From the sequence record MF327009: a stretch of 64,000 nucleotides of DNA; one strand, 5' to 3'. Position 1 is the stretch's first letter; each line of letters opens with the position of its first letter. This document shows, in pieces, positions 384 through 61,502 of the stretch. Made by a program: the position numbers and the translations under genes. Source of the DNA: Shigella phage Sf25. Under the pieces are notes generated by a model, which saw only the letters and a list, made by a program, of their open reading frames with translations, made no database searches and was not told where the DNA came from.

Positions 384-2897
384 TCATAATTTACAGGATG
401 AACAATCTTCAGCTTTTGGAGTTTCTATTTCATAATCATCAGTACCAGAACCGTCACGGGTATTATGATAATAGAAATTTTTTCCGCCAAAATACCAAAA
501 ATATAAAAGGTCATCAATCATTATTGACATTGGAACCTTTCCTTTTGGAAAAATCTGCGGGTCATAATATGTATTAGCTGAAGCTGATTGACATACCCAT
601 TTCAGCATAATAGCTACTTGCGTAAGATAAGGTTTATTGCCTTTCTTAGCTAATTTCCACGTATAATCATAGAGGTCTATGTTATGCTCAATATTGGGCA
701 CGACTTGATTAAAGGAACCCTCTTTTGATTCTTTAACAGAGACTGGTCCACGTGGAGGCTCGATACCGTTTGTACTGTTAGAAACTTGGGAAGATGACTC
801 ACATGGCATAAGTGCTGATAATGTGCTATTACGGATGCCAAAGAGCTTAAGGTCTTCCCGCAGCGACGACCAGTCACAAACGTATTTTGGAGCTGCGATT
901 TGGTCAATCTTTTTATTGTACCAGTCGATAGGTAATTCGCCTCGAGACCAACGAGTGTCTGAATAATATTCGCAAGGTCCTTTTTCTTTGGCGAGCTTAA
1001 TGGATGCTTTAATGAGTCCATACTGTAATCTCTCAAATAGTTCATGTGTTAAATCGTTAGCATCTTCATAAGAAGCAAAATTACTTGCCAGCCAAGCTGC
1101 ATAGTTAGTAACACCTACACCAAGATTTCGACGCTTTTTAGCTTTTTCTGCTTCAGGAACTGGATATCCTTGGTAATCCAAAAGATTATCAAGAGCACGA
1201 ACTTGGACTTCTGCCAATTCATTAATTTTATCTTGGTCTTGCCAATCAAAGTTATCTAACACAAATGCAGATAACGTACACAATCCAATTTCAGCATCAG
1301 GACTATTCACATCATTTGTTGGAATAGCAATTTCACAGCACAAGTTGCTCTGACGAATAGGTGCCTTTTCACGAATAAACGGAGTATAGTTATTCGTATT
1401 ATCTATGAACTGTACATAAATCCTTGCTGTTCCTGAGCGTTCAGTCATGAGCAATTCAAATAGTTCACGGGCTTTAATACGCTTTTTACGAATATTAGGG
1501 TCTTTTTCTGCTGCTTCGTATAATTCACGGAAACGGTCTTGGTCTTTAAAATAAGAATAATAAAGCTCGCCACCCATTTCATGCGGACTGAACAAAGTAA
1601 TGTAATCGTTCTTTCCGAATCGTTCCATCATCAAATCATTCAGCTGAACACCATAATCCATATGACGGATACGGTTTTCTTCTACACCTTTGTTATTTTT
1701 CAAAACGAGAAGATTTTCAACTTCCAAATGCCAAATAGGATAATAAGCAGTAGCAGCGCCGCCACGAATTCCACCCTGTGAGCATGATTTAACAGCAGTC
1801 TGAAAATGTTTCCAAAAAGGAATAACACCAGTATGGCGTACTTCACCTGTGCCAATCTTAGAACCTTCGGCACGAATCATACCAACGTTAATACCAATTC
1901 CATAATCCATATGACGGATACGGTTTTCTTCTACACCTTTGTTATTTTTCAAAACGAGAAGATTTTCAACTTCCAAATGCCAAATAGGATAATAAGCAGT
2001 AGCAGCGCCGCCACGAATTCCACCCTGTGAGCATGATTTAACAGCAGTCTGAAAATGTTTCCAAAAAGGAATAACACCAGTATGGCGTACTTCACCTGTG
2101 CCAATCTTAGAACCTTCGGCACGAATCATACCAACGTTAATACCAATTCCAGCGCGTTTGGAGATATATTCAACAATTGAAGCAGAAGCCTTATTGATAG
2201 ACTTTAATGAATCACCTGCTTCAATAACAACGCATGAACTAAACTGCCGAGTTGGAGTACGGCAACCAGCCATAATAGGAGTTGGCAGTGAAATCTGTCG
2301 AGTAGATACTGCTTCATAAAAACGGATAACGTGTTTTAATCTATCAACAGGTTCATCTTGATGCAATGCCATTCCAATAGTCATAAATGCAAACTGTGGA
2401 GTTTCATAAATTTGACCAGTGGTTTTATCTTTAACTAGATATTTTTCTTTTAATTGCATCGCCCCGGAATAAGTAAATTCCATATCCCGCTCGTGCTTAA
2501 TTTTTGATTCTAAAAATGTAATTTCTTCGGCAGAATATTTTGACAACAATTCAGGGTCATATTTACCTTCATTTACACAGTAAGAAATGTGGTCAATAAA
2601 TGAACGTGGTTCATACTGCCCATAAACATGCTTACGAAGAGCGAACATTAAACAGCGTGCAGCTACATATTGATAATCAGGCTCTTCAACTGAAATAGAA
2701 TTCGCAGCAGCCTTAATTACAATGGTTTGAATGTCATCAGTTGTCATTCCATCACGGAGATATGATTTAATATTTTCATATAATTCATAAGGATCTACAG
2801 ATGTTCCTTCAGCTGCCCAAGATAAAACTTTAATAATTTTTTGCGGGTCAAAGCTCTGAGAAACACCACTACTTTTGATAACATTAATTAATTGCAT
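384..2897 (-). CDS. nrdA: Aerobic ribonucleotide reductase large subunit NrdA; 837 aa including an 83-aa in-frame internal tandem duplication
   Basis: ORF track 837 aa; class I RNR alpha sequence; peptide GIGINVGMIRAEGSKIGTGEVRHTGVIPFWKHF...ENRIRHMDY occurs twice in tandem. Confidence 0.9.
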   Translation of the reverse strand: MQLINVIKSSGVSQSFDPQKIIKVLSWAAEGTSVDPYELYENIKSYLRDGMTTDDIQTIVIKAAANSISVEEPDYQYVAARCLMFALRKHVYGQYEPRSFIDHISYCVNEGKYDPELLSKYSAEEITFLESKIKHERDMEFTYSGAMQLKEKYLVKDKTTGQIYETPQFAFMTIGMALHQDEPVDRLKHVIRFYEAVSTRQISLPTPIMAGCRTPTRQFSSCVVIEAGDSLKSINKASASIVEYISKRAGIGINVGMIRAEGSKIGTGEVRHTGVIPFWKHFQTAVKSCSQGGIRGGAATAYYPIWHLEVENLLVLKNNKGVEENRIRHMDYGIGINVGMIRAEGSKIGTGEVRHTGVIPFWKHFQTAVKSCSQGGIRGGAATAYYPIWHLEVENLLVLKNNKGVEENRIRHMDYGVQLNDLMMERFGKNDYITLFSPHEMGGELYYSYFKDQDRFRELYEAAEKDPNIRKKRIKARELFELLMTERSGTARIYVQFIDNTNNYTPFIREKAPIRQSNLCCEIAIPTNDVNSPDAEIGLCTLSAFVLDNFDWQDQDKINELAEVQVRALDNLLDYQGYPVPEAEKAKKRRNLGVGVTNYAAWLASNFASYEDANDLTHELFERLQYGLIKASIKLAKEKGPCEYYSDTRWSRGELPIDWYNKKIDQIAAPKYVCDWSSLREDLKLFGIRNSTLSALMPCESSSQVSNSTNGIEPPRGPVSVKESKEGSFNQVVPNIEHNIDLYDYTWKLAKKGNKPYLTQVAIMLKWVCQSASANTYYDPQIFPKGKVPMSIMIDDLLYFWYFGGKNFYYHNTRDGSGTDDYEIETPKAEDCSSCKL
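1651..2148. repeat. Exact direct tandem duplication, 2 x 249 bp, inside nrdA (boundaries ambiguous by about 3 nt)
   Basis: Sequence beginning cataatccatatgacggatacggttttcttc recurs at 1652 and 1901 with no mismatch seen by eye. Confidence 0.9.
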
Positions 2898-2915
2898 AAG
2901 TCCTCAACTTGAAAA

Positions 2916-3271
2916 TCGTCTTTAAACAATCGGTTAACTATATGAGCTATTATATCACCATGACACGGCTTTGGTTTACATGTGCATCCTAGCCTCATTC
3001 CACGTAAAGGCTCTAAATGTGCTTTAGTTATTTCTCCGGATTTAATTCGACGTATAAAATCTTTTTTGAATAATTCAATGGCAGCCTCCCGGCTCGTCTT
3101 TAAACAATCGGTTAACTATATGAGCTATTATATCACCATGACACGGCTTTGGTTTACATGTGCATCCTAGCCTCATTCCACGTAAAGGCTCTAAATGTGC
3201 TTTAGTTATTTCTCCGGATTTAATTCGACGTATAAAATCTTTTTTGAATAATTCAATGGCAGCCTCCCGGC
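2916..3271. repeat. Exact direct tandem duplication, 2 x 178 bp, spanning the 3' end of a small ORF just upstream of the nrdA start
   Basis: cgtctttaaacaatcggttaactatatgagc... recurs at 2917 and 3095. Confidence 0.9.
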
Positions 3272-3609: not shown

Positions 3610-4466
3610 ATTGCCATTTTCCCTTTAATTGCTGGATGCGATTCATAATTTTCAAGGATAAAATCTTTCGGTTTCATGTATTCAGTTAACCAGTAAAGCT
3701 GTGTTTCGGTGTCACAATTTCCAAACTCTATAGGCCAATCAATTTTAAGTTCACACAGTTCTTTAGGCTCACGACGTAAAATTTCTTTACATTGCTCAGT
3801 ATGATTCATATAGATGTGAGTATTACCACCAGAAAATATCAAATCTCCTGGGATAAGATTACACATCTTAGCCACAATATGCGTCAAGGCAGCGTACGAG
3901 GCAATGTTGAATGGCAAGCCCAAGAAAACATCTACACTTCTTTGGTACCATTGTAAATCAAGATAACCATTACGCACATTAAACTGATAGAACATATGAC
4001 AGGGCGGTAATGCCATTTGATTGATTTCAGCTGGATTCCATGCTGAAACGATTTGACGTCGATCAGTTGGTAATTTTTTAATACGATCAATAGTTTCAAC
4101 TAATTGATCCACACCACCGAAATCACGCCATTGTTTACCGTATATAGGACCAAGTTCACCACTATGATATCCTAGGTCTTTAGCTTGGTTTTCATAATTG
4201 TCATCCCAGATAGTTTTACCTTGAATAAGACTACCGTGAGTAAGAAGACGTAAATCATTAACATTGGTAGAACCGGAAATAAACCATAAAAGCTCAGCAA
4301 TGCATGCATTCCAGGCGAGCTTCTTAGTTGTTACTGCAGGAAAACCTTTGGTTAAATCCCATCGTAATTTAGTACCGAACAAAGCAATTGTTCCTGTGCC
4401 CGTTCGGTCATCGGTTTCATAGCCATTTTCAAAAATGTCTTTAATTAAATCTTGGTATTGTTTCAT
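3606..4466 (-). CDS. td: Thymidylate synthase, uninterrupted (no group I intron)
   Basis: 286 aa; ThyA motifs including the PPCH catalytic-Cys region; contiguous ORF. Confidence 0.93.
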
Positions 4467-6441: not shown

Positions 6442-6887
6442 TACTTTTTGAAAGTTTTTCGCAAAAGTTCAATGATTTCATCTACATTGTTTTCGTCAAC
6501 AATGCAGTGAATTTTTGTTACGCCAGAAACCTTGTCTATGACTTCATCTACATTGTTTTCGTCAACAATGCAGTGAATTTTTGTTACGCCAGAAACCTTG
6601 TCTTTGACTTCATCTTCTTCAGAAGTCGGTTCTTTATACTCACGAAAACAATGAAATTCATCTTCGCAAATTTCTAAAAGTCTATCTTTGAGGTAAAAAT
6701 GCTTTCCATTTGCGCATTCAATGTGTTTTACTGCTTTATATCCATTAGCGACGGAAACTTCTTTAACTTCAAACCATCCGCCATTATCTCGAATAGCTTT
6801 AACGATTGATGAATTAGAACGTGGGCTATAATTAATAAATGTATCAATAAGTCTTGGAACAAGTTCATACTTTTTGCCAATATACAT
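6441..6887 (-). CDS. Hypothetical protein carrying an in-frame 22-aa tandem repeat
   Basis: ORF track 148 aa; DKVSGVTKIHCIVDENNVDE repeated. Confidence 0.55.
   Translation of the reverse strand: MYIGKKYELVPRLIDTFINYSPRSNSSIVKAIRDNGGWFEVKEVSVANGYKAVKHIECANGKHFYLKDRLLEICEDEFHCFREYKEPTSEEDEVKDKVSGVTKIHCIVDENNVDEVIDKVSGVTKIHCIVDENNVDEIIELLRKTFKK
6477..6608. repeat. Near-exact direct tandem duplication, 2 x 66 bp
   Basis: ttcatctacattgttttcgtcaacaatgcagtgaatttttgttacgccagaaaccttgtct occurs at 6477 and 6543. Confidence 0.85.
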
Positions 6888-8212: not shown

Positions 8213-8310
8213 TTTTATTTCCTTTTTAATTTAATTAACAGTTGGTGCTATGACGATGTATGACCTCATAGCTGGTCAGTGAGATAATTATAATCTATTT
8301 ATAATAAGCA
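8213..8310 (-). promoter_or_regulatory. Gene 32 5' control region: A/U-rich leader (candidate autoregulatory operator) plus overlapping late (TATAAATA, 8296-8303) and MotA-box-like middle promoter elements
   Basis: Minus strand reads TTGCTTATTATAAATAGATTATAAT ... AATTAAATTAAAAAGGAAATAAAAATG. Confidence 0.5.
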
Positions 8311-8311
8311 A

Positions 8312-9136
8312 TTAATACTTGCAAGATTTCACAGTTTCAATAAAAACTTTTTTAGCTTCCTGTGAATCAATATTTAAAATTTTTCTATAAGCCTTTAACT
8401 TTATAGAATAATTATTCCAAACTAAATTATCAGTTTGTTGATCATGTTTATCAATTATATTTAAAAACGAATCAAGCAAGATAAACGTCTCAAACGAAAT
8501 TATGTTCGATTGCAGAAGTTTAAAAATATAACTTGACTGAACTTTTGGATTATACTCAAAAATTTCTTTAAAAGCAGAAACTTCAACTTTTTTACTAAAA
8601 TAATAAATGTTGCGAATATCTTCTTCAAACTTAAATTTAATTTGCTTTAAGCGTCCGATATATTCACGATAAAACACAAGTGCATCAGCGTCAGAGATGT
8701 CACCAATCCAAGCATCTTGGTTAGCAACCAAATTGCTTATAAAGATTAAAGCAAGTTCCTTTAATTTATATTTTTCTGATAACTTCTGGAAAAAATACTT
8801 ATCCCTTCGATTAGTTTTTTCACAACGAACAACAGAAGGACGTAAAAGATTTTCGTCGATAGCTTCTGACTGAATTTTTTCAATTATACCCGAAGGAATA
8901 AATTTAGCAAATTGAGTTTCAGGAATAGAATTTTCTTCTAAGAACGCTGTTGTAGCTTCAAGATAACTCATTCCAAACTCTTCTACCATTTTTTCAATAA
9001 TAAATCCATTTTCTTGGCGGTCAAGAAGCTTTGCTATTTCATCCTTTTCTTTCTTAATTGAAAGTTCTTTTTCTGAAAGACCGGTCTCATCGACCGGACG
9101 AATATCATTTAGAGAAAACTGTGTCATAAAGTTCAA
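8312..9136 (-). CDS. Apparent in-frame fusion ORF: acidic N-terminal part (gp33-like late transcription factor) joined to basic C-terminal part (gp59-like helicase loader)
   Basis: 274 aa; junction near 8806-8812 (...RCEKTN/RRDKYFFQ...); only one ORF between dsbA and gene 32 where T4 has two genes. Confidence 0.55.
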   Translation of the reverse strand: MNFMTQFSLNDIRPVDETGLSEKELSIKKEKDEIAKLLDRQENGFIIEKMVEEFGMSYLEATTAFLEENSIPETQFAKFIPSGIIEKIQSEAIDENLLRPSVVRCEKTNRRDKYFFQKLSEKYKLKELALIFISNLVANQDAWIGDISDADALVFYREYIGRLKQIKFKFEEDIRNIYYFSKKVEVSAFKEIFEYNPKVQSSYIFKLLQSNIISFETFILLDSFLNIIDKHDQQTDNLVWNNYSIKLKAYRKILNIDSQEAKKVFIETVKSCKY

Positions 9137-16134: not shown

Positions 16135-19100
16135 ATGGCTACTTTAAAACAAATACAATTTAAAAGAAGCAAAACTGCAGGTCAACGTCCTGCTGCTTCA
16201 GTATTAGCCGAAGGTGAATTGGCTATAAACTTAAAAGACCGTACTCTTTTTACTAAAGATGACTCGGGAAATATTATTGATTTAAGCATTTCTGCCGGTG
16301 GTAACATTAGTGGAAATATCACTCAAAATGGTGATTATTTACAAAACGGCACGTATAATCTTAATGGAAATCAGTTTGTTTATGCAGGAAAGTATATTGA
16401 ATTCTTGCCAAAAACTGCTGGAAATGGTGCTTGGGCAAATCAGCACACAAATAAAGCTCCAATTTTCACCGATTTGAGTTCAACTACTTCAACTTCTGAA
16501 TATCATCCGCTAATTAAACAACGTTATAAAGATGGAACGTTTTCATTAGGGACTTTAGTTTCTGAAGGCTCAATGAAGATACACTATATCGATGAAACTG
16601 GCACTTCAAAATATTGGACTTTCCGACGTGATGGTGGTTTTGTTGTTGATAGTGGTAGTTTAACTGTTACTGCTGGAAACATATCTGCTTCAGGCAATAT
16701 TAATTCGGCATCAGGGGTTGTTTCAGCTCCTCAAATTAATACAAAAACCATTGTTTTAGATACAAAAGCATTTGGACAATATGATTCGCAGTCATTAGTT
16801 CAGTATGTTTATCCTGGCACTGGCGAAACAAACGGTATAAACTATCTTCGTAAAGTTCGCGCAAAATCAGGTGGTACAATTTATCATGAAATAGCTTCAG
16901 CTCAAAGTGGAAAAAGCGATGAAATTTCGTGGTGGACTGGAAATACAGCCGTTAATAAACAAATGGGTCTTCGTAATGATGGTGCAATGGTATTACGTCG
17001 TTCACTTGCTATTGGCACAATTACTACAGATGAAAACGTAAATAACTATGGATCTGCTGGAGCAATGGGAGAAAAATACATTGTTCTTGGAGATGCGTCA
17101 ACTGGACTAGCTTATAAAAAGACAGGAGTTTATGACTTAGTTGGTAGTGGTTTATCTGTTGCTTCTATCACTCCCGACAGTTTTCGTAGTACCCGTAAAG
17201 CAATTTTTGGACGTTCTGAAGACCAAGGCGGTACATGGCTTCTTCCTGGTCAAAACGCTGCTCTTCTTTCAGTTCGTACAGATATTGATCAAAATAATAA
17301 CGGTGATGGTCAAACTCATATTGGATATAATAGTAACAGCAAGTTTTATCATTATTTTAGAGGCAGAGGCCGAATGGCTGTTGGAATGGCTGAAGGTCTT
17401 ATTGTTGAGCCTGGAATTTTAGATATTAAAACTGGTTCAAATACTGTTTCTATTAGAGCTGATGGCGGAATTTCATCTACTCAGCGTCTTTCATTGCAGA
17501 ATGGTATATTTTTATCTTCTGACGGAAATAACAACGGTATATCGTTTAAAGCTTCTAGCAGTATAGATGGAACTAAAACTCTTAATTGGGATGCTGGTAC
17601 TCGTGCAGGTCAAAACAAAAATACAGTAATTTTAAAAGCATGGGGAAATTCATTTAATACAAGTGGTGGAACTGATAGACATACTGTATTTGAAGTTTCT
17701 GATTCGCAAGGATACTACTTTTATGCTCAACGTACTACCCCTGCATCCGGTCAAACAGTAGGTCCTATTAATTTTAAATTTAATGGTACTGTAGAAACCG
17801 GTCATATCAATGGATTAGGTAATATTACTTTATCTGGGGCAGTTATAGCAGATTCTGCTAATATTAAAGGACCGCTAAAAATATCTAATGCTAATACAGC
17901 TGATGCTTTTAGAATATGGAACGCTGAATATGGAGCCATTTTCCGTCGTTCAGAAACATCATTGCATATTATTCCTACACTTAAAGATGCAGGGGAAAAT
18001 GGTGGAATAAGTAATCTTCGCCCATTAAGTATTGATCTTTCAAACGGATTTGTGCAAATGCATCATTCTCTTTCTGTGGGGAATACAGTAAGAACGAATG
18101 GATTGTTTGCTGTGGATACTTCAGCTGCTCTTGTTGCAATTAACAGATGTTCCTATTGTGAAACAAAGATACGTTCAAGGGAATAGCACCTATTCATTAG
18201 GTACTTTAATTAATGGTGGTGATTTCCGTTTACATTACCATGAAGGCGGTGACAGTTCTTCAACAGGTGCAGTTATAAAAGATATTTCCTGGGAATTTAA
18301 ACGTAATGGTGATTTCTATTCGCCAGGTCGTTTACGTACAGGAAATATCTATATTGGAACTGATGGTAATATCACGGGTGGTTCTGGTAACTTTGCTAAC
18401 TTGAATACAACTTTAAACCGTAAAGTTAATTCTGGTTTTATTACTTATGGAGCAACTGCAGGTTGGTACAAGTTTGCAACAGTAACAATGCCTCAAGCTA
18501 CATCAACCGTTTCAATTACAGTCACTGGCGGAAATGGATTTAATTCTGGATCATTTAATCAGTGTGCAATTTCTGAAATTGTTCTTCGTACAGGAAACAA
18601 TAATCCTCTGGTGATACATATGACATTTATGTTAATATGGGAACATATGCTAATCAGTTGATATTTAACTATAGTTCTGTTGATAATGCCACAGTTCAAA
18701 TTATTGGCGCATTCAGTTCAGCTCAAAATCCTGTTGATGCATTGCCAGAAACATATGTTAAAGGTCAGGTAGCAGATGTATTGACTAACTTAGTTGATTC
18801 TGGAAAAACGAAGCGTTTTGTTGCTGAATCTGAAATAGCTATTAATAATCAAACTGGATTACGTATTACGAGTAATGGTGATAAATCTGGTTCAAATTCA
18901 GTATTATTCAGAAATGATGGATCAGCGTTTTATATTCTTTTAACAGATAAAAACGCAGCAGATGGAAATACGACTGCCACAGAAGGAGATTGGAATGGTA
19001 AACGTCCTTTCCAAATTAATATGACTTCTGGTGAAGTAACATTCGGAAATAATATTAATATTTCTGGAAACGGAAGCATTACTTGGACAAAAGCCGGAGC

Positions 19101-19800: not shown

Positions 19801-20498
19801 ATGGCAATTGTAGGTGTTCCTGGCTGGATTGGTGAATCTGCCGTGAATGAAACAGGACAGCGTTGGATGGATGCTGCAATGAGAGCAGTCCGTGTTTCAG
19901 TTCCCGGTTGGATGAGCTCAATGGCCGGACAATCTAAAGAAGTATATTATAGCATTGGTGCTAGTAATTCTTATAATAAAGATACATTAATAAACTGAAT
20001 GCATACGTGACACTTAATATCAATTCAGGCGTGCATGTTTGGGGCCGTGGCGGGAATGGCGGAAATAACTCTGCCGGTGGAGCAGGAGGAACTGCAATAA
20101 ATAATGGAATTGGAACTAGATTGCGTATTAACAACAATGGTGTTATCGCAGGAGGCGGTGGCGGCGGTGGAGGCGGATATTATTCTCCTTTTTCACAAAT
20201 GAAATTGACTTTTGGCGGTGGCGGCGGTCGTCCATTTGGTGCTGCTGGCGGGTCTGCTAATATGGAACAGGGCGCTACTGCTGGTACTATTTCTGCACCT
20301 GGTAAAGGGTCTGTCAATGGTATCTATAATGGCGGGAATGGCGGTGATGCTGGTGCCGCAGGTGGTAAATGTAATATTCGTGGGCAAGGATCAGAATATA
20401 ACGGCGGTGCGGCCGGTAAAGCTGTTACTGGTAATGCTCCAACTTGGACTAAGGTTGGTACAATATATGGCCCTCTGATATTCTATTTGGTGTTCTAG
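19801..20498 (+). pseudogene. 38: Receptor-recognising adhesin gp38 (T2-type, glycine-rich motifs), split into two reading frames
   Basis: N-terminal 65-aa ORF (MAIVGVPGWIG...) ends at a stop at 19996-19998; the glycine-rich part (GGGGGGGGYY...) follows in another frame from 20007. Confidence 0.55.
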
Positions 20499-25575: not shown

Positions 25576-25679
25576 TAGTAGATAACAACACAAATGTTAA
25601 ATATGCACACATACCCTGGGCTAAAGCTTGAAATTATTACGATAGAACTGCATCACATGTTCGTTATGGAAATTACTCA

Positions 25680-26529: not shown

Positions 26530-26718
26530 TTATTTTACACCATTCCAAATTGTTTCAACTACAGATTTTAAGCCATTTTGATGAATGTCCATTCCGACTA
26601 CCGCCATCAAATAGATTCCAACTACGTTTAACATATCAATCATTAAAACGATTGGGAATATACTCAAAACTACTAGTATTATAACTACATTCCATATAGC
26701 TTTAATAATCTTTTTCAT
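26530..26718 (-). CDS. Small membrane protein
   Basis: Start MKKIIKAIWNVVIILVVLSIFPIVL with GGAGG RBS; 62 aa. Confidence 0.5.
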   Translation of the reverse strand: MKKIIKAIWNVVIILVVLSIFPIVLMIDMLNVVGIYLMAVVGMDIHQNGLKSVVETIWNGVK

Positions 26719-29330: not shown

Positions 29331-31757
29331 TTAGGCCGCAAGGGCCTTCATAGTTTTAGCGATTTGAGAAACTTCATCATCACTTAAAGAGTTGCGATAA
29401 CCGATGAAGTCGGAAACAATACGGAATTTCTTGGTAAACTCAGCAACCATTTTATCACTGTTTTTTGAAGCATTATTTGATAATACATCAAAAAGATTAG
29501 TTACTGTCCAGATGTCATGACCGATGGTACCTTTTCCACCGTTGAAATATACGCCCCGCAATGAACTAACTATATTAGCGAGTCGTGTATATTCTTCAGA
29601 AACTTCATCTGTACTGAAGTACTTCATCATAAAATCTAGTTCAGGATACTTGATAATTTTATCAATATATCGTTGAGCTGAACTTGAATAACCTACGTAC
29701 TTATCATAATCTACATCATCAAAAGCATCTACATATAAATCACGCAGAGTTTCAAAAATACATTGGCACTGACCGAGTTCTTTTACCTTTTTCTGCAAAA
29801 GCGGACGAATAACATAAAATTCATTAATGCCAATAAGATTAGCCATACGAATCAAAATATTCATAGATGGATGACAAAGAGATGTAGTACCATCCATAGA
29901 GAAAATATCAGAACGATGCATATACGCTACATAACCAGTAATTTCATCTGCTTCTGATGTGAGCGTAAACAGTTCCTCTTTTTCCCATCGCCCATCTTTA
30001 ATTTCAAACTTAAATGCTGTAGCAGCTTTAGGACGAGGAGCTTTACTTTTAACTACCTTTGGAATATAGCTTTTAACTAAAGCTTCAATTTCTGACAAAT
30101 AATGAATGTTAACTTCATCACTTTCAAACATCGCCATAATATCAGGAAGTAAATCAATCTGCGATTCTACTTCTGGATTAATAAACAGAAGACGCTCATT
30201 GTGATGAATATTCAAAGTGTTATTAAATTCACTATCATCTAACGCATGTGCTAATCCACGAACAATATTAACACGATTTTTAATATTATCAATAACGATA
30301 TTAATTTTTGTTGTATTAATACCAAACAGACGATAACTTGATGCAACGGCTGAAGTTTCATGACTTTGCTTAATGCGTTTCAGTCGAGGGTCAAGATTTA
30401 CTTCATACACAACTCCTGCATTGCATAACTTACTGTCAGGTTCAAACATGCTCTGCATCTTTTTATATGACAGATTTTTAGTCGTGAATTTGACTGAATT
30501 ACTAATCATATAATCTCGAGCAGAATATCCCATCTTCATCAATTCACGATATGTGTGACGAGGAGATGTAGATTCTTTAAATCGTTTTACATCTTCATTG
30601 AATGCCTTCTCACTAAGCTCTTTAACACGCTCAATAATATTTTTACGAGTACGATCATCTAGTGAAAGAGCTTCGCGTGATGGAGCAATATCAAGTGAAC
30701 CCATTGGAAACTTAATGTAATTCACTTCATTGCGAATGCTTAGCCAGTTACGGTCTCTAATAACACCATCGATAGGATAAACAATACCGCCATAGATAGC
30801 ATATAATCCACCACGATCAGGCCAGTATCTTTCTGGATTTACACCATAATAATCATCAAAATCAGGAAAATAATCAATTTCAATAATATTTTTACGAGTA
30901 CGATCATCTAGTGAAAGAGCTTCGCGTGATGGAGCAATATCAAGTGAACCCATTGGAAACTTAATGTAATTCACTTCATTGCGAATGCTTAGCCAGTTAC
31001 GGTCTCTAATAACACCATCGATAGGATAAACAATACCGCCATAGATAGCATATAATCCACCACGATCAGGCCAGTATCTTTCTGGATTTACACCATAATA
31101 ATCATCAAAATCAGGAAAATAATCAATTTCGCGGTCAAGACCATTAATGATAGCCAAATCTTTGAACGGTCGCATGATATAAGAAACTTCATAAGCAAAG
31201 TTTCTAAAGTCTTTTTCTTCAACTGGAACTACGATTTCAATACCAGTTTTATCATCTGGACCCATTTCTTTTACGAATGTAGGTTTAATCTGTGGGCCAT
31301 CACCATCCATGTAAGCTACATAACCACGAATTTCACCTTTATGATACGAAGTAATACTAAACGTATCAGTATAACTAAACGGAGATTTAGAACCTAAACC
31401 AAATCCGCCAATAAAGTCATTAGATTCAGCCTTAGATGAACTGAAGTATGAATTATACAGCCCAGGAGAATTATCATCACCCTGAATATCAAAATCACTC
31501 ATACCCGGACCAAAATCTCGACAAACAAATCGTGGATCTAATCGTCCTGGAACTTGAATGATAAATTTTTCAGGATTTCCATTAAGTGCATGAGCATCAA
31601 TCATGTTAGTAATCAATTCACGGACTACTGCGCGAATCTTGTTTGTATACAAATCAGATGACAGAATTTTAAATACTTTAGGATTTGCTGCGATGCTAAA
31701 TGCTTTTGATTTAGAACCATTGCCAAGAATTGTTTCTTTTTCAGTGGTGATAATCAT
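29331..31757 (-). CDS. rIIA: rIIA protein; 808 aa including an 83-aa in-frame tandem duplication
   Basis: N-terminal GHKL-like ATPase sequence; peptide [25 protein letters not shown]...RTRKNII occurs twice. Confidence 0.9.
30632..31129. repeat. Exact direct tandem duplication, 2 x 249 bp, inside rIIA
   Basis: caataatatttttacgagtacgatcatctagtgaaagagc... begins at 30632 and 30881. Confidence 0.9.
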
Positions 31758-31996: not shown

Positions 31997-32026
31997 ATTA
32001 TACCACATCCTTGTGGTAAAGTAAAC
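31997..32026 (-). promoter_or_regulatory. Putative early promoter (GTTTAC-N18-TATAAT) overlapping the 3' end of gene 39
   Basis: Reverse complement GTTTACTTTACCACAAGGATGTGGTATAAT. Confidence 0.5.
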
Positions 32027-39216: not shown

Positions 39217-40536
39217 TCACACATAAAATACATCATAACGACCACGAGTTACACCAACATAAAGAAGCTGCTGAGCTAGTTCAGCGTCTGCATAATGAAT
39301 GCAAGGCGTATAAATGAAAGCACGATCTACAGACATACCCTGAGCTTTATGAAATGTTGATGCAGGAAGTGCTTTCACTTTACTAAACTGTGATTTAGCA
39401 TCCCAAAAATCGCTCCAAGGTGCTTTTCCGCCTTTGTTCCAATTTTTATAAGTTTCTGCTGTTTTACCTAAAAATAGGTTAAACTTATACAATTCTTCAT
39501 CAGATGAAATTATTTTAATCTTTTCACGATAATATTCATCATCACCATAAGTTTCTACTGTTAAATCCCAATGACGAATTAGATATTCTCCAGGAACACC
39601 ACGAGCTTTAACAAACGTTGATGTATACTCTGCTTCTATAATACGAACTAACTGTCCATTGTTAAAAATAATTTCTGATACCGGTTTTCCGTCAATTTTA
39701 TATGTTTTAATTAACGGTTCTTGCATTACAATAATTTCACCAACAATAAAATCTTTATCAGTTTCAAAAATCTTTTTACGAATAATGCTATTTAACTTGT
39801 CAACGGATTTATTCGTAAATGCCATTACGCGATTTTCAAACAAATCATCTAGTGATTTAACGATTGAAAAATAATTTACCATAAAATCACGTAAAGCGGT
39901 ATCACCTGTAAATCCGCGTACTCCATGACCATCAATGATTTTATCATAAATCCATTTGCCATTACGAACATCAGTAGCTACATCAATAATAGGAGCATTA
40001 CTACGTTTAACTTCAGTAAGTTCACATTGATAAAAATCTTTATGCGTAAAGAATGGACTGATATAAGCAGTATTTTCTCCTGGATCAACAGGCCTAATTT
40101 GCTTATTATCGCCTATTCCAATTATAGTACACCACGGTGGGATAGTTGAAAGCAAAATTTTGAAGAGCTTTCTATCATACATTGATACTTCGTCACAGAT
40201 TAAAACTCGACATTTAGCTAAATCTGGTACTTCTTTTTGTTCAAAAAGAACGTTTTCTTCATACGTAACTGGGTTAATTTTAAGAATACTGTGAATAGTA
40301 CTCGCTTCTTTCCCTGACAGTTTTGAAAGAATCTTTTTAGCTGCATGAGTAGGAGCTGCTAAAATAATACCAGTTTCGCCTGTAGATATTAAAGCTTCAA
40401 TGATGAATTTTGTAAGAGTAGTCTTACCAGTACCAGCAGGTCCATTAATAGTTACATGATGTTTCTTTTCTTTAATAGCCCTCATAACGATGTTAAAGGC
40501 ATTTTTCTGGCCTTCTGTCAAATCATCAAATGTCAT
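39217..40536 (-). CDS. dda: DNA helicase Dda (SF1B)
   Basis: 439 aa; Walker A GPAGTGKTT. Confidence 0.92.
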   Translation of the reverse strand: MTFDDLTEGQKNAFNIVMRAIKEKKHHVTINGPAGTGKTTLTKFIIEALISTGETGIILAAPTHAAKKILSKLSGKEASTIHSILKINPVTYEENVLFEQKEVPDLAKCRVLICDEVSMYDRKLFKILLSTIPPWCTIIGIGDNKQIRPVDPGENTAYISPFFTHKDFYQCELTEVKRSNAPIIDVATDVRNGKWIYDKIIDGHGVRGFTGDTALRDFMVNYFSIVKSLDDLFENRVMAFTNKSVDKLNSIIRKKIFETDKDFIVGEIIVMQEPLIKTYKIDGKPVSEIIFNNGQLVRIIEAEYTSTFVKARGVPGEYLIRHWDLTVETYGDDEYYREKIKIISSDEELYKFNLFLGKTAETYKNWNKGGKAPWSDFWDAKSQFSKVKALPASTFHKAQGMSVDRAFIYTPCIHYADAELAQQLLYVGVTRGRYDVFYV

Positions 40537-41716: not shown

Positions 41717-42163
41717 TTATAGATTAAATCCTTCAAAATCAAGAGTATAGATAGTATATGTTGAATACTTTTTGTACTCATATCTATCTGCAATTCTAAA
41801 TACACTTCCAGCTGGTATCATTACTTCTTGTTCATCTGAAACTAATTCCATATTACGATAACGATGACTATCCGGAAACTTAAAGTTTGGATTGTATTCT
41901 TTACAGCGTAGAGCTTTTATAGCATACTCCTGGAAATTGAATACCATAGGAGCTTTGAATTCAAAAATAACTTGTGTGTTATACTCTAAAATTTCATTTA
42001 ACCAAGTATGGTCATCTGGTTTATTAGTAATACAATGAATTAAAAGTTCAATTTCAGATAAATTAAACCCTTCAGAAAGTAATTCTTCACGAATAGAAGC
42101 ACGCACCGATGCATCCATTGATTTTATTTTAAAATCTTTTAGTTGCATTACTGAGTATTTCAT
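41717..42163 (-). CDS. modA: ADP-ribosyltransferase paralog (ModA-like), shorter than expected
   Basis: 148 aa; catalytic E-x-E region SDEQEVMIPAG paralogous to the upstream ORF; start overlaps the modB stop (ATGA). Confidence 0.5.
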   Translation of the reverse strand: MKYSVMQLKDFKIKSMDASVRASIREELLSEGFNLSEIELLIHCITNKPDDHTWLNEILEYNTQVIFEFKAPMVFNFQEYAIKALRCKEYNPNFKFPDSHRYRNMELVSDEQEVMIPAGSVFRIADRYEYKKYSTYTIYTLDFEGFNL

Positions 42164-42809: not shown

Positions 42810-42839
42810 ATCATATCATCGTTAGAAAGGAAAGTAAAC
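42810..42839 (-). promoter_or_regulatory. Putative early promoter for modB (GTTTAC-N18-TATGAT); part of it is re-created in the adjacent duplication
   Basis: Reverse complement GTTTACTTTCCTTTCTAACGATGATATGAT, then GGAGG RBS. Confidence 0.5.
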
Positions 42840-43228
42840 AACTTTTTGAATTATTTTGCCCAGGGAGCCCAAGGCGGAGGGTCAAGATGGTATGAAGCTA
42901 GTTCTTCTAGAAGAGCATCTGGGGCTTCAATTCCATAATTCTGTAATACTATACGGTACTCTTTCTTATAATCACTAGAATCATTCTGGTTATTCGTAGA
43001 ATGATTATCTTCTAACATTCATATCATCGTTAGAAAGGAAAGTAAACAACTTTTTGAATTATTTTGCCCAGGGAGCCCAAGGCGGAGGGTCAAGATGGTA
43101 TGAAGCTAGTTCTTCTAGAAGAGCATCTGGGGCTTCAATTCCATAATTCTGTAATACTATACGGTACTCTTTCTTATAATCACTAGAATCATTCTGGTTA
43201 TTCGTAGAATGATTATCTTCTAACATCT
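42813..43228. repeat. Exact direct tandem duplication, 2 x 208 bp, covering a promoter/intergenic region and most of a small ORF
   Basis: atatcatcgttagaaaggaaagtaaacaactttttgaattattttgcccagggagccc... begins at 42813 and 43021. Confidence 0.9.
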
Positions 43229-45530: not shown

Positions 45531-46293
45531 TTAATAGCCTCGATCTTGACGAGCGAAGTTTTCAGCATTTTTCAGATAATAAAGTTTAAAGATTTCCTCA
45601 GCTGACATTCCAAGAGCAATGAATTTATTCATGAAAAAGTGAAATTGGTCAATCAGTTCAAATTTAATTTCAAGCTGATCTTCAGGAGATAAGTCTTGAA
45701 TTTTCTTGGATTGCATTTCAGAATAACGTTTCTTCCAAGGTTTCCATACAGCAGAAGCTTCTTTTTCACCATTACTCATACCACCAAGAGAAGTATATAG
45801 CTCGCGAGTTTCATCTGCGATATAATCGTCTTGGTTTCGCAACCAAGCAAGAACTTCTCCTGCAGTTTCAAGTGAATCAGGATGACGATTTGTTTCTGGT
45901 TTATCATTAGCCAAACGAATCTGTAAATGCCGCTGCATGTCAAATTTTCTTGGATTGCATTTCAGAATAACGTTTCTTCCAAGGTTTCCATACAGCAGAA
46001 GCTTCTTTTTCACCATTACTCATACCACCAAGAGAAGTATATAGCTCGCGAGTTTCATCTGCGATATAATCGTCTTGGTTTCGCAACCAAGCAAGAACTT
46101 CTCCTGCAGTTTCAAGTGAATCAGGATGACGATTTGTTTCTGGTTTATCATTAGCCAAACGAATCTGTAAATGCCGCTGCATGTCAAGCATAACCTGCAA
46201 TGGGTCAATACTGTGCATAATATACTCAGCATATGCACGATTTGCTTTATCAACACCTTCGATCAAATGAGCACATTCATTAAAGTGAGCCAT
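45531..46293 (-). pseudogene. 56: dCTPase/dUTPase gp56 (MazG-like) disrupted by a frameshifting 244-bp tandem duplication
   Basis: N-terminal frame MAHFNECAHLIEGVDK... (AAGGAAA RBS) terminates at the repeat junction near 45940; C-terminal part ...ALGMSAEEIFKLYYLKNAENFARQDRGY is in another frame. Confidence 0.6.
45700..46187. repeat. Exact direct tandem duplication, 2 x 244 bp (not a multiple of 3), inside gene 56
   Basis: attttcttggattgcatttcagaataacgtttcttcc... begins at 45700 and 45944. Confidence 0.9.
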
Positions 46294-54536: not shown

Positions 54537-55381
54537 TCACCGTTATAATCTTTTTTCACAATATGAGTTTCGCCAGTATTCCACCAATGATCAACCAAGT
54601 AAAAATGACGAGAATATACATGAAGACTTCCAACATTCCATATAATAGAACCTGCTTTATACTGACGAGTTGAATCGCCGGCATTCAAATCAGATACTAA
54701 TTTATCTAATACGTATTTTTGCCATGCATAATCATTACGGAATCCGAAGACCACGTCATTTGAGCGCATGCTTACTACTGCATTGACTTTCTTATCACGA
54801 ATCAGGTACTGTACTGTATTAGTACACATGAAATCTGACATACCATCTTTATTGTAGTCAAATTGCATGGATGGACGAGTCATGCTTACTACTGCATTGA
54901 CTTTCTTATCACGAATCAGGTACTGTACTGTATTAGTACACATGAAATCTGACATACCATCTTTATTGTAGTCAAATTGCATGGATGGACGAGTATAAAT
55001 CATGATACCACGTCGAGAATCAGGATTTTGACCAAGTTCAGCTAAACACATATCATACTGGGCATAGTTATCTTCTGACCAAATAGCCCAACCATAATTC
55101 GAGTTAATTTCGCCTTTAGAAGATGCTACCTGCTGCCAAATCTTTGGTGTTTCGCCTGGAATATCTTTGACAAACAGACTTTGAGACTTGTACCATTCAA
55201 GTTCACGCTGAATGTATTCATCATTAAGAGCGCCAAAAATAAAGGGTTCATCTGCTACAAATGATGCGCCAATAATTTCAATAGTTTTAACACCGGTTTT
55301 ATCAACTACGAAATCTTTTTCTTTTAATGCAAGCCCCAAATGAAGACGGATTTCTTCAACTGTCATAAAGTCACTAATCAT
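54527..55381 (-). CDS. 42: dCMP hydroxymethylase gp42; 284 aa including a 38-aa in-frame tandem duplication
   Basis: ThyA-like fold sequence; peptide TRPSMQFDYNKDGMSDFMCTNTVQYLIRDKKVNAVVSM occurs twice. Confidence 0.9.
   Translation of the reverse strand: MISDFMTVEEIRLHLGLALKEKDFVVDKTGVKTIEIIGASFVADEPFIFGALNDEYIQRELEWYKSQSLFVKDIPGETPKIWQQVASSKGEINSNYGWAIWSEDNYAQYDMCLAELGQNPDSRRGIMIYTRPSMQFDYNKDGMSDFMCTNTVQYLIRDKKVNAVVSMTRPSMQFDYNKDGMSDFMCTNTVQYLIRDKKVNAVVSMRSNDVVFGFRNDYAWQKYVLDKLVSDLNAGDSTRQYKAGSIIWNVGSLHVYSRHFYLVDHWWNTGETHIVKKDYNGEWK
54767..54994. repeat. Exact direct tandem duplication, 2 x 114 bp, inside gene 42
   Basis: catgcttactactgcattgactttcttatcacgaatcagg... begins at 54767 and 54881. 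Confidence 0.9.
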
Positions 55382-56601: not shown

Positions 56602-59445
56602 TCAGCCAAACAGGAAGTCTAACGAAGCTTTTTCTTCATAGTCCATACCAGCCGATTCACACATGCCTGCAAGCGGTTTAACAAACGATTTTTGGAACAA
56701 AGTTGAGTAGTCAATCCAAGACAGTACGTCAGAACGAATTTCTTTTGGAAGTTCTGTACCCGACGGCCAAGCAATGCATTTGTCACCAAATGGATTTCCT
56801 TCACGCAATGGAAGAACCATTACTTTATTTCCATCCAAAATTGGAGCTACACCTAAACCGCTAACAGCTCGACGATAAGTTAGCACACCACGAATATGGA
56901 ACGGACATTTAAATCCTGGCCAACCTTTATCATCATATTTCGCTATATCGTTCGCAGTTTTTACTTCAGCAATAACTTTATAGTCAAGTTGACGATATTC
57001 TTTCTCGAAGTTCTTGTAATATTCTTGGACAGACTCTTCACCTTCCTGAAGAATACGACGAATACTTTCTTCGAGAGCTTCTTGGACCGCTTTAGGCGTT
57101 GAACTCTGCTGAGTTTCCATACCCATGATTTTTAGATGCGGTTCAGCAAATCGCTTATCTTCCATATCATATACGTTCAGAGCATAACGCTTTTTCGCTT
57201 TCCAAAATCCGCCAACGCCCTTTGAACCAAGTGGAGGGCAAGAAATAGCTTCACGGTCCATATGCATCAGATGCTCGCGGTTATTCATATAATCACATAA
57301 CTCACGATATGCAACATCAATCATAGGTTCCATCTTTTTCTTACCGAACTGATTCATGAATTCAACTAAATCGTTCTGCTCTTTGAATCGGTCAAGACCA
57401 ACTTTTTCAATAACTTTATCTACACAAACATATACCGAATCAGTATCACCTGCTGCAATGAAATCTTCGCCATTAGTTCCGCATACTTTATTCAGATATT
57501 CATTAATTTTACGAGCAATCCACTGAATACCAACTTGGCCGAAAATTGTGATAGCAGTAGCATTTCGCAAATCATAGTAACGGAAATGAATATTACCAAG
57601 AGCACCATAAAGACTGTTAATAAGAATTTTACGGTTCAGCTGATTTGTGTTAGCAAGTGTAGCTGCTTTTTCACACTCTTCGATCAAACTATTAAGAACA
57701 GATTCGGTGTAATTCGATAGTTCATTTAAGAAATCATCACTGAACTTAACATATCGTTCAACTTCTGGTTTAGTTGAGCAAGACCCTGCGCCTTTCATAA
57801 TAATCTTTTTAATAGCTTCGGCATTCATTTCTTCAGCGAACATTTTCTTTTTCCAATCTTTACGCTGGAAAAATACTTTAGCGATTTCCTTTGGAATGAT
57901 ACCTTCTTGATGCTTATCATACATCCATCCATTCGGAGAACAAGAATATTCATCACTCGGTTTAGGAGCTGTTCCTGCGATATATTCATGAATTGGATGA
58001 ACTTTAAACTGACCACGAATAGTCTCAGGACTAATGTTAACCTGACGAATAATGCTCGGATACAGAGACGTCAAGTCAAAACTCATAATATATCGACGAG
58101 CAATTGGTTTAGGTTCAAACACAAATGCACCCGGAAAACTCTGTTTAACGTGCGAACCTTGTTGAGGAATAACCTTATGTTCACCTTTCAATGAGTTAAA
58201 AATAATAGCATCCCAAGTTTTAATAGGACTCATTACACCGGAAAAAGGCATTTTAGCGTAATAAGACATACTTAAAACTAGATCGATAAACCCGCGAATT
58301 TTATCAATTGCTTGAACTGATTCTACGTCAATGATGTTATAACTAATGTATCGTTGATGATTAGTCTCACGAAGTTTATTAATAGGACCGTCGTATGGTA
58401 ATTTACCTTTTTTGGTTTCATGTTGAGCAACTGATTCCAAAGAGAATGACGGCAAATTAGTAAAAGCGAATTTCTTGTACAAATCTAAATAATCAAGAAT
58501 AGATACGCCATCAATAGAATAAATTTCTTTGCTGCCGTACATATTTTGAATTAGTTTGGATTTTACCCGACCGATTGGAGAGAAACGTTTCATACTGCGT
58601 TCGCCTAGAATCATTTTAACACGATTCATGATATATGGAACGTCAAACCCCTCAATATTCCAACCGGTAAAAATAGCAGGTCGTTTCTGTTCCCAGAGAT
58701 TGATATATTCCATGAGCATATCACGCTCATTATCGAATGGCATATAAATTACTCGGTCAAGAATTTCTTGAGGAACTTCATCACCACCTTCACAGTCAAG
58801 CTTAGCAGCTAACTTTGCATCCCATTTTGATACTGAACCGTACATTGAATTCAAAAGGTCGAAAACATAAAAACGATCGTCAATTGAATCGTAATGAGTG
58901 ATAGCATCAATTTCATATTCAGCTTTCATTGGGTCAGGAAATTTATCACCAGTAACCTCAATGTCACAGTTAGCTACACGAACACCGTACATTGAATTCA
59001 AAAGGTCGAAAACATAAAAACGATCGTCAATTGAATCGTAATGAGTGATAGCATCAATTTCATATTCAGCTTTCATTGGGTCAGGAAATTTATCACCAGT
59101 AACCTCAATGTCACAGTTAGCTACACGAACAAATTTTCGGTCATAAACAATTTCTGAACCATATGTATCACTGATATAAGCGAGTTTAAAATCGTTCATA
59201 CCGAGAGCTTCGAGACCGATGTCTTCCATTCGCTTCATCCAATCTCGAGCATCTTTCATTGATGGAAATTTTTGAGGAGCGCAGTTTTTACCATAGATGT
59301 CTTTGTACTTTGACTCTTCCTTACAATGCCTAAACATAGTTGGAAGATATTCTACTTCACGAGTACGTTCCTTTCCATTTTCATCAATATAACGTTCAAC
59401 AATATTATTTCCGACTGTTTCAATAGAGATATAAAATTCTTTCAT
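56602..59445 (-). CDS. 43: DNA polymerase gp43 (family B); 947 aa including a 49-aa in-frame tandem duplication in the N-terminal/exonuclease region
   Basis: Pol B motifs (DxxSLYPS-like FDLTSLYPSII, YGDTDS-like GDTDSVY); peptide VRVANCDIEVTGDKFPDPMKAEYEIDAITHYDSIDDRFYVFDLLNSMYG occurs twice. Confidence 0.92.
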   Translation of the reverse strand: MKEFYISIETVGNNIVERYIDENGKERTREVEYLPTMFRHCKEESKYKDIYGKNCAPQKFPSMKDARDWMKRMEDIGLEALGMNDFKLAYISDTYGSEIVYDRKFVRVANCDIEVTGDKFPDPMKAEYEIDAITHYDSIDDRFYVFDLLNSMYGVRVANCDIEVTGDKFPDPMKAEYEIDAITHYDSIDDRFYVFDLLNSMYGSVSKWDAKLAAKLDCEGGDEVPQEILDRVIYMPFDNERDMLMEYINLWEQKRPAIFTGWNIEGFDVPYIMNRVKMILGERSMKRFSPIGRVKSKLIQNMYGSKEIYSIDGVSILDYLDLYKKFAFTNLPSFSLESVAQHETKKGKLPYDGPINKLRETNHQRYISYNIIDVESVQAIDKIRGFIDLVLSMSYYAKMPFSGVMSPIKTWDAIIFNSLKGEHKVIPQQGSHVKQSFPGAFVFEPKPIARRYIMSFDLTSLYPSIIRQVNISPETIRGQFKVHPIHEYIAGTAPKPSDEYSCSPNGWMYDKHQEGIIPKEIAKVFFQRKDWKKKMFAEEMNAEAIKKIIMKGAGSCSTKPEVERYVKFSDDFLNELSNYTESVLNSLIEECEKAATLANTNQLNRKILINSLYGALGNIHFRYYDLRNATAITIFGQVGIQWIARKINEYLNKVCGTNGEDFIAAGDTDSVYVCVDKVIEKVGLDRFKEQNDLVEFMNQFGKKKMEPMIDVAYRELCDYMNNREHLMHMDREAISCPPLGSKGVGGFWKAKKRYALNVYDMEDKRFAEPHLKIMGMETQQSSTPKAVQEALEESIRRILQEGEESVQEYYKNFEKEYRQLDYKVIAEVKTANDIAKYDDKGWPGFKCPFHIRGVLTYRRAVSGLGVAPILDGNKVMVLPLREGNPFGDKCIAWPSGTELPKEIRSDVLSWIDYSTLFQKSFVKPLAGMCESAGMDYEEKASLDFLFG
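58837..59130. repeat. Exact direct tandem duplication, 2 x 147 bp, inside gene 43
   Basis: accgtacattgaattcaaaaggtcgaaaacataaaaacgatcg... begins at 58837 and 58984. Confidence 0.9.
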
Positions 59446-59523: not shown

Positions 59524-59787
59524 TTAAATTAGTACTATTTGTCGGTGAAAAATTGTCATTCCATCTGCATTAATTGACTTAACGACTGCAGTAAAGTGTT
59601 TTTGTTCTGGATGAATTAATTTTTGAAATTCTACCTGAAATTTTAGTTGAAGGTTTTCTGGTAAATCAAAAAGTGTTTCTGTTGCAGAAAGATTATATTT
59701 TTCTTTAAGAGACGTCATGTATTCTTGTGGAGTTATAGCAGTCATATTAATTACCAATCGTATATTTAGGAACGAGTTTCCATTCAT
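59524..59787 (-). CDS. Hypothetical protein
   Basis: ORF track 87 aa; overlaps regA 3' end. Confidence 0.4.
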   Translation of the reverse strand: MNGNSFLNIRLVINMTAITPQEYMTSLKEKYNLSATETLFDLPENLQLKFQVEFQKLIHPEQKHFTAVVKSINADGMTIFHRQIVLI

Positions 59788-60115
59788 GTTTTTGTTTAAA
59801 AGAAATAACTCGGAAGTTATTAGTTAAATCTTTCATAAAAGTTCTTTGACCAGGAACGATTTCAATCAATCCCCAATCTTCTAACAACCATGCAATCGAA
59901 TCACGACGAACTTCATCTTCTTCTGCCATTTCAACTTGACGACCATCCATACGAAGCATTTCTTTAAAATGAACGATATAGTATAGTCCTTTTTTCTGAA
60001 GAATATGACAGGACTGATACAGAACTTTATCTTTATTATTAGCAATTCCCATACGAGTCAAAGTTTCTTTTACTTTCAGAAAATCTTCAGGTTTTTTAAG
60101 AGTAATTTCAATCAT
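59747..60115 (-). CDS. regA: Translational repressor RegA
   Basis: 122 aa MIEITLKKPEDFLKVKETLTRMGIANNKDK... Confidence 0.9.
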   Translation of the reverse strand: MIEITLKKPEDFLKVKETLTRMGIANNKDKVLYQSCHILQKKGLYYIVHFKEMLRMDGRQVEMAEEDEVRRDSIAWLLEDWGLIEIVPGQRTFMKDLTNNFRVISFKQKHEWKLVPKYTIGN

Positions 60116-60116
60116 T

Positions 60117-60541
60117 TTACCATTCCAATGCTAGTTTTTTGAGTTGTTTCTGTTCTTTTACGTTCTTAGTCACTTCTTTCAAAAAATCATATCTTCGACC
60201 AGTTTTGCCCATTTACCATATCTTTTACCACGAGGAACTGCAGCCATCAGATAATTAAAATGAGCTTCATCACTTAAGCCTGATCCAATTAAATTCATAG
60301 CATATACAGCTGGCATGCACTCTGGAAATTGTGATAATGCATTTTCAACCATGAATTTTGAATAATCTTTTTGAGCAATAGAGCATTTAGTTTTATTATT
60401 AATAGCTCCAATTATTTCAAAAAATTCATTTTCAGCTTTTTCTTTAAAAGAATCAGCAGCAGATTGGACAGCTGTCCAATCTTTTGAATACCAAGCAACT
60501 TGATGCTCGTTTAATTGAATATCATCTTCAAATAAGCTCAT
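60117..60541 (-). pseudogene. 62: Clamp loader small subunit gp62, disrupted by an internal frameshifting lesion
   Basis: N-terminal frame [22 protein letters not shown]... stops at 60179 (...KLVEDMIF*); downstream, out of frame, [23 protein letters not shown] ends at the regA start. Confidence 0.55.
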
Positions 60542-60542
60542 A

Positions 60543-61502
60543 TCACTTCCACTGCATTTCACATGCTAATTGAATGAAAAGATAAGCTAAATGTAATTCA
60601 GTGTTAGCTGCAATACCATGATACTGATTATTTTCACCAACAATTTCGTACATACGAATAATACTTTGCGGAGTTACACGTGAATAGATTTCTTCGGCAA
60701 GTTTACCCACGAACCACGAATAATCAGCTGCATATTTTGGTGCTAAAGCTCTGAGTTGTTTAACATCTTTATTTTTGAGAGACTCAAGAACATCATCAAT
60801 AGCACCACGATCGTTAGTAACCAGTGATAAAATACCAGCATCCAAAACACCTTTAGATGAATAACTATCGAGCTCACCAATAGTTTTACGAAAATCAGGA
60901 AAATTCTTTTTAACCAAAGCTGCTACAACTTTCATATCAGCTATAGCAATTCCTTCATGCTTGCAGATTTCAGTCAATCGACGAATCATCTGCTTCATCA
61001 TTTCAATTTTATCTTCATCGGTCGGTTGACCGAATGTAATAACTCGGCAGCGTGACTGGAGAGGTTTAATAATACCATCAATATTGTTAGCAGTAATAAT
61101 AATACTACAGTTTGAACTATAAGCTTCCATAAAGGAACGAAGATGTCGCTGAGACTCTGCTAACCCTGAGCGGTCAAATTCATCAATAACGATTACTTTT
61201 TGACGACCATCAAATGAAGCGGCGCTGGCAAAATTAGTCAAAGGACCACGAACGAAATCAATTTTACAATCTGACCCATTCACAAACATCATATCAGCAT
61301 TTACATCATGACACAATGCTTTCGCTACAGTTGTTTTACCTGTTCCTGGAGAAGGAGAATGAAGAATAATATGTGGAATTTTACCTTTACTTGTAATAGA
61401 TTTAAAGGTTTCTTTATCAAAGGCGGGAAGAATACATTCATCGATAGTAGATGGACGATATTTCTGTTCAAGAATGTGTTCTTTTTCATTTACGGTAATC
61501 AT
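60543..61502 (-). CDS. 44: Clamp loader large subunit gp44 (AAA+)
   Basis: Probable start MITVNEKEH (319 aa); Walker [11 protein letters not shown]. Confidence 0.92.

Follow-up and report, generated by a model that had tools for sequence, protein, structure and literature searches.

A 139-bp gap in clamp-loader gene 62 of a Shigella phage Sf25 record: one of about fifteen similar lesions and probably a defect of the sequence record

Introduction

In the gp44/62 clamp loader, gp62 is the A ('clasp') subunit, and structures are available under PDB codes 3U5Z, 3U60, 3U61 and 8UH7. The part of the subunit that lies C-terminal to the collar forms the A′ bridging domain (PMC3331839). The eukaryotic A subunit also has an A′ domain C-terminal to its collar, and the A′ domain of T4 shares its fold topology with that of yeast (PMC3331839). 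T4 deleted for genes 45, 44 and 62 does not grow unless a helper plasmid is supplied (PMC8121543), in agreement with the essentiality that an earlier note on the DNA considered here had ascribed to gene 62. This DNA, a stretch of 64,000 nucleotides from the record for Shigella phage Sf25 (MF327009), is referred to as the window, and within it the coding sequence of gene 62 is interrupted.

Several described systems invite comparison with such an interruption. Programmed recoding is exemplified by the 50-nt translational bypass in T4 gene 60 and by the −1 frameshift in dnaX of Escherichia coli. Spontaneous deletions in T4, the classical rII deletions for example, typically end in short direct repeats. 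A third comparison is with the join artefacts of draft or reference-ordered assemblies.

Results and discussion

The window and its relatives

A megablast comparison with 50,697 phage records returned hundreds of Tequatrovirus genomes at 95-99% identity. Shigella phage Sf24 (MF327008.1) is the closest over the whole window, at 98.2-98.5%, and identity to T4 is about 98% across genes 62-46. Where genes are untouched by the lesions described below the agreement is closer still at the protein level, with gp44, gp45, gp41, UvsX and gp61 100% identical to the Sf24 proteins and gp34 99.9% identical.

An unlesioned counterpart of the window was sought by way of the exact gp44 and Dda proteins and a strain-private regA 31-mer. 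The 31-mer matched nowhere in the collections searched, and the contigs fetched through identical gp44 or Dda proteins share only 92-98% DNA identity with the window. Identical gp44 is encoded on many contigs and, among those listed, ten out of ten carry a 187-aa gp62 (PF16790) together with an 898-aa gp43.

Gene 62 and its surroundings

Translation of the window places the gene 62 remnant at 60117-60541 on the minus strand. The genes around it on that strand run in the order 46, 45.2, rpbA, 45, 44, 62, regA, a 43.1-type ORF and 43. The features at and beside the remnant are as follows.

60543..61502, minus strand: gene 44 (clamp-loader ATPase), intact, 319 aa; 100% identical to Sf24 gp44
60191..60541, minus strand: gene 62 5′ fragment, codons 1-117 in the native frame; 100% identity to Sf24 gp62 residues 1-117 by tblastn
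60190..60191, no strand: gene 62 deletion junction, 139 bp absent and no microhomology; from alignments and junction sequences
60179..60190, minus strand: out-of-frame tail made by the junction, ATG ATT TTT TGA (Met-Ile-Phe-stop); from translation and alignment
60117..60188, minus strand: gene 62 3′ fragment, codons 165-187 and stop in a shifted frame; 100% identity to Sf24 gp62 residues 165-187 by tblastn
59747..60115, minus strand: regA, intact, 122 aa; 99.2% identical to full-length Sf24 RegA

The product that starts at the ATG at 60541 has 120 residues, 117 of them native (MSLFEDD...WAKLVED) and followed by Met-Ile-Phe and a TGA at 60181-60179. The earlier note had described 120 N-terminal codons ending in a premature stop; the stop is there, but the native codons number 117 and the remaining three were created by the junction. 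It had also placed the C-terminus of gp62 downstream and out of frame, and this is borne out, since a tblastn search with Sf24 gp62 places residues 1-117 in frame −1 but 165-187 in frame −3, each without a mismatch (100% identity). Protein matches this complete to Sf24 gp62 put the lesion far beyond chance. The last 23 native residues are encoded at 60188-60120, with the stop at 60119-60117, and fall within a 31-aa ORF at 60117-60212 in the mechanical ORF list. This segment was said to end exactly at the regA start. The two are adjacent but do not abut directly, as a 1-nt spacer separates the gene 62 stop from the regA ATG at 60115, the same as in Sf24 and T4. The position between gene 44 and regA, 1-nt spacer included, is as expected for the A subunit of a T4-type clamp loader.

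Alignment with phage teqskov, Sf24 and T4 places the gap between 60190 and 60191, the missing bases being Sf24 124285-124423 and T4 30416-30554. The deletion, previously put at about 140 bp and not a multiple of 3, is exactly 139 bp. Against teqskov it is a single, clean gap and the junction in gene orientation consists of GGTCGAAGAT joined to ATGATTTTTTG. The same breakpoint is obtained against ten further contigs, and the 139 bp are present in 20 of the 20 fetched relative loci that span gene 62. Because 139 is 3 × 46 + 1, residues 118-164 are gone and the frame is shifted.

Alignment to a reference gp62, suggested earlier as a check, gives a consistent picture. The gp62 sequences of Sf24 and T4 each have 187 residues and align over all of them with one substitution (E5K); the window gene is without residues 118-164. 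The likeness to the T4 system extends to a canonical 45-44-62-regA-43 gene order and to two fragments that match Sf24 gp62 perfectly; the window gene differs in having lost codons 118-164 and in carrying its last 23 codons out of frame. The 120-aa product matches the PF16790 profile (Phage_clamp_A) with an E value of 3.1e-43 but covers only profile positions 1-88 of 144, whereas Sf24 gp62 covers positions 1-144. The full-length, single-frame domain of about 187 aa is absent from the window gene and 56 of the 144 profile positions lie past residue 117. Since only positions 1-88 are kept, the product would by inference be without the C-terminal bridge to the E subunit and the clamp.

Could the two fragments be joined in translation? 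A U6 run directly precedes the new stop at 60179-60190 (AUU UUU UGA) and the native C-terminus is encoded precisely in the −1 frame, such that a −1 slip would give a putative working gp62 without residues 118-164. The arrangement resembles the gene 60 bypass and the dnaX frameshift in being a coding discontinuity in an essential replication gene, with U6 beside a stop. It is unlike them in that dedicated signals were not found at the window locus and that the discontinuity is not conserved, occurring in none of the 50,697 phage records. Every relative has the T6 run as native gene 62 sequence, so it is no sign of design, and nothing comparable offers a rescue at the other lesions of the window. 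Even a successful slip would leave the product 47 residues short, and the region past residue 117 includes the part that forms the A′ bridging domain (PMC3331839). We attach practically no credence to recoding. Designed −1 slippage was rejected on the grounds that the run is native and the discontinuity unconserved, and the adjacency of U6 and stop is treated as a coincidence.

Duplications elsewhere in the window

Gene 62 carries one of about fifteen lesions in 64 kb, roughly one per 4 kb, that fall in essential and non-essential genes alike. Seven are perfect tandem duplications which, in the order of the window, measure 249, 178, 249, 208, 244, 114 and 147 bp; in addition there is one imperfect 66-bp repeat. 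The duplications were found by an exact tandem-repeat scan of the whole window, and each appears as a backward step in the reference in block comparisons with Sf24 and, independently, with T4. In the list the gene 43 entry derives from the repeat scan and alignments, the others from the repeat scan and the Sf24 and T4 comparisons.

1651..2148, minus strand: nrdA, perfect 249-bp tandem duplication, 83 aa added
2916..3271, minus strand: nrdA.1, perfect 178-bp tandem duplication, frameshift
30631..31128, minus strand: rIIA, perfect 249-bp tandem duplication, 83 aa added
42811..43226, minus strand: modA.2, perfect 208-bp tandem duplication over the gene
45699..46186, minus strand: gene 56 (dCTPase), perfect 244-bp tandem duplication, frameshift
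54767..54994, minus strand: gene 42 (dCMP hydroxymethylase), perfect 114-bp tandem duplication, 38 aa added
58837..59130, minus strand: gene 43 (DNA polymerase), perfect 147-bp tandem duplication, 49 aa added

In gene 43 the ORF is extended to 947 aa, compared with 898, by a 49-residue block (VRVANCDIEVTGDKF...NSMYG) repeated in the N-terminal region; no relative has this repetition. Gene 56, which is essential, is broken: tblastn recovers residues 1-117 and 36-172 in different frames.

The imperfect repeat is in frd.2 (6471-6602), where it adds 22 residues. It shows two mismatches in about 75 nt and there is similar sequence at its ends. On these features it may be a natural repeat of the strain rather than one of the lesions.

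Deletions elsewhere in the window

There are seven clean deletions of 71-173 bp, gene 62 included. Six appear in the comparisons with Sf24 and with T4 alike, and the one in gene 37 could be tested against Sf24 only. The other six sites, to which no strand is assigned, are listed with their basis.

8809..8810: gene 59 (helicase loader), loss of gp59 residues 1-52 with the start codon and of the last three codons of gene 33; 173 bp; Sf24 and T4
18146..18147: gene 37, frameshifting 173-bp deletion, probably of the same class; Sf24 only
20470..20471: adhesin gene 38 and holin t, loss of the end of the former, of the spacer between them and of the start codon and first nine codons of the latter; 71 bp; Sf24 and T4
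25630..25633: loss of most of ac (and of stp in T4 coordinates); 136 bp; Sf24 and T4
26625..26626: ndd.2a to ndd.4, deletion of about 129 bp; Sf24 and T4
41990..41991: modA, internal 156-bp deletion; Sf24 and T4

The coding effects were followed with tblastn. The frame is shifted in genes 62, 56 and 37 and in nrdA.1, and both gp59 and holin t have lost their start codons, the holin aligning from residue 10 only. The in-frame insertions amount to 49 residues in gene 43, 38 in gene 42 and 83 each in nrdA and rIIA. With genes 62, 56 and 37 frameshifted and gp59 and t deprived of their starts, the predicted genome is non-viable; a genome with all of these lesions could not propagate.

Shared character of the lesions

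Breakpoints at 60190, 58984, 54880, 43019, 41990 and 30881 recur in comparisons with 18 further contigs, which were retrieved by way of their exact gp44 and Dda proteins. Short direct repeats at the end points, the mark of slippage-type events, were sought at the seven deletion junctions and not found; microhomology is 0-1 nt at seven out of seven, and the duplication runs exceed their period by 0-3 nt only. Such values indicate arbitrary breakpoints and argue against both replication slippage and assembler collapse at repeats. The copies within each duplication remain 100% identical to one another.

A small-indel signature of sequencing error was also looked for, and the small gaps that are present in the window are compensating pairs confined to divergent stretches. 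The sequence between lesions is clean, and sequencing error was rejected as an explanation.

Lesion sizes range from 66 to 249 bp, with 249 bp occurring twice alongside 244, 173 bp occurring twice, and none above 249 bp. A read-length ceiling might lie behind these sizes, as might a range of sizes fixed in advance.

The aberrant junctions and products were then compared with public data. A 44-nt probe centred on the junction seeds megablast only where a record contains the junction itself, and with such probes neither the gene 62 junction nor that of the gene 43 duplication had a match in the 50,697 phage records. A 40-mer across the gene 62 junction is absent from IMG/VR, where a flank-only control was positive, and a 24-mer is absent from the JGI metagenomes and GTDB genomes. 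Exact-protein lookup in a gene index of 153 billion positions returned neither the 120-aa gp62 nor the 947-aa gp43.

A defective or engineered genome as a possible alternative

One explanation to be considered is a true deletion in a defective phage genome that either persisted through complementation, by intact phage in a co-infection or by a helper plasmid, or was a dead end when it was sampled. The gene 62 lesion is sharply bounded between intact flanking genes 44 and regA, and T4 deleted for its clamp-loader genes can be maintained on helper plasmids in the laboratory (PMC8121543). We consider it unlikely all the same. It would have to account for about fifteen independent lesions within 64 kb, in seven or more genes that are essential or important, for duplicated copies that have stayed 100% identical, and for a junction that is traceless in public data (phage records, IMG/VR, JGI metagenomes and GTDB). 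In addition, assembling a mixed population into a consensus would give the majority, intact, form. The absence of microhomology at the junctions is also unlike the usual spontaneous T4 deletions. Events of the rII type, deletions and duplications, are comparable in size range, and in them too a segment is cleanly lost or gained, but they use short direct repeats, whereas the window junctions have 0-1 nt of homology and fifteen lesions coexist, essential genes among those hit.

A bolder form of the same idea, in which the window is a faithful copy of a real, heavily rearranged and non-autonomous T4-like genome maintained by complementation from co-infecting phage, strikes us as very unlikely. 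If true, it would point to an unusual rearrangement process resembling end joining in a T4-like phage population.

Deliberate removal of gene 62 in an engineered or selected laboratory mutant, as in platforms for clamp-loader mutagenesis, has a precedent in laboratory T4 strains without genes 45, 44 and 62 (PMC8121543). The backbone of the window is, however, that of a wild Sf24-like strain and not T4, with about 98% identity to the latter across genes 62-46. Neither gene 44 nor gene 45 is damaged, no target site or scar has been inserted, and the deletion is partial, out of frame and accompanied by fourteen unrelated lesions. We regard an engineered origin as highly improbable.

A probable defect of the sequence record

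We favour a different explanation, with a probability of roughly 0.85: that the 139 bp are missing from gene 62 through a fault of the sequence record and that the gene does not have this form in a living phage. About fifteen lesions of one mechanical type are placed without regard to function, lack microhomology, have not diverged, are private to the window and interrupt an otherwise pristine backbone, a combination that leads us to suspect the production of the record. The manner of that production we infer. The underlying genome would be an ordinary Tequatrovirus nearest Sf24, overlaid with about fifteen arbitrary breakpoints, at each of which up to about 250 bp would have been written twice in perfect tandem or 70-175 bp left out. 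At gene 62, codons 118-164 would never have been written into the record and the phage itself would have a normal 187-aa gp62.

Two routes could lead to such a record. In the first, pieces would have been joined end to end, unmerged overlaps giving tandem duplications and unmarked gaps giving deletions; a reference-ordered concatenation of contigs from a thin assembly of 250-nt reads would be one example. The ceiling near 250 bp might then arise from contig ends that overlap by up to one 250-nt read. The second route, in-silico editing, whether deliberate or accidental, would fit equally well.

Like the join artefacts of draft or reference-ordered assemblies, the lesions are many, include both gains and losses, show exact copies, arbitrary junctions and a ceiling near 250 bp, are separated by good sequence and are absent from relatives. 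They are unlike them in that standard assemblers would normally merge such overlaps, and in-silico editing would look alike. Several points count against an artefact. Overlap-based assemblers normally merge 100%-identical overlaps of 150-250 bp, the unlesioned source strain turned up in none of the collections searched, and the breakpoints do not coincide exactly with the switches in divergence from Sf24.

Those switches also bear on a special case of artefact, in which the window would be a chimeric scaffold of contigs from co-occurring T4-like strains and the lesions the joins between them. Blocks between lesions do differ strongly in how far they have diverged from Sf24, the range being about 1-3 to 20-50 mismatches per kb, and for three lesions a switch is no more than about 300 nt away. 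Nevertheless the switches are 250-750 nt off the lesion coordinates, most lesions sit inside uniformly diverged stretches, and the block pattern is explained by the natural mosaicism of T4-like phages. A chimeric scaffold is in our view highly doubtful. Treating the lesions as strain-to-strain joins was set aside as unsupported, divergence from Sf24 changing near the lesion coordinates and not at them.

What, then, does a defect of the record imply? Taken alone, the frameshifted clamp-loader gene looks like a mutant or a candidate for recoding; in context it becomes one of many record defects. The earlier note had by implication presented the break in gene 62 as a notable property of the phage. 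That reading is not supported, given about fourteen similar private lesions of 66-249 bp, several in essential genes, with no microhomology at the junctions and with the tested junctions unseen elsewhere. Were the gene 62 lesion true, there would be a T4-like phage without a functional clasp subunit, contradicting the known essentiality of the clamp loader. The same interpretation as a record defect extends to the other broken genes and internal duplications in the window, such as the 49-residue block of gene 43, the gene 56 frameshift and the loss of the holin start. The record is unfit for statistics on gene content or protein length before it has been checked against reads.

Ordinary strain differences

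Other departures from Sf24 are of a different kind. Gaps at about 25680, 44620 and 45499 are seen against Sf24 alone, and T4 or other relatives match the state of the window. As that state is shared, these gaps were discounted as ordinary strain polymorphism, together with the absence of segG and the divergence of the 43.1 region. The homing endonuclease gene segG is absent from between genes 32 and 59 (8276-8310), a natural difference in content, and the ORF between regA and gene 43 (59531-59746) is a different 43.1 variant common to other relatives.

The topoisomerase large subunit (32026-33846) is encoded by a single unsplit ORF of 606 aa, as in Sf24 (605 aa). The segment corresponding to T4 2794-3910, which holds the gene 60 bypass region, 60.1 and mobA, is replaced in the window by about 64 nt, and so this is a strain without the gene 60 translational bypass.

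The Dda protein (39217-40536) is identical to that encoded on contigs whose dda-containing alignment block (41989-39217) is only about 94% identical in DNA. This suggests many synonymous changes among the differences and strong purifying selection on Dda across strains.
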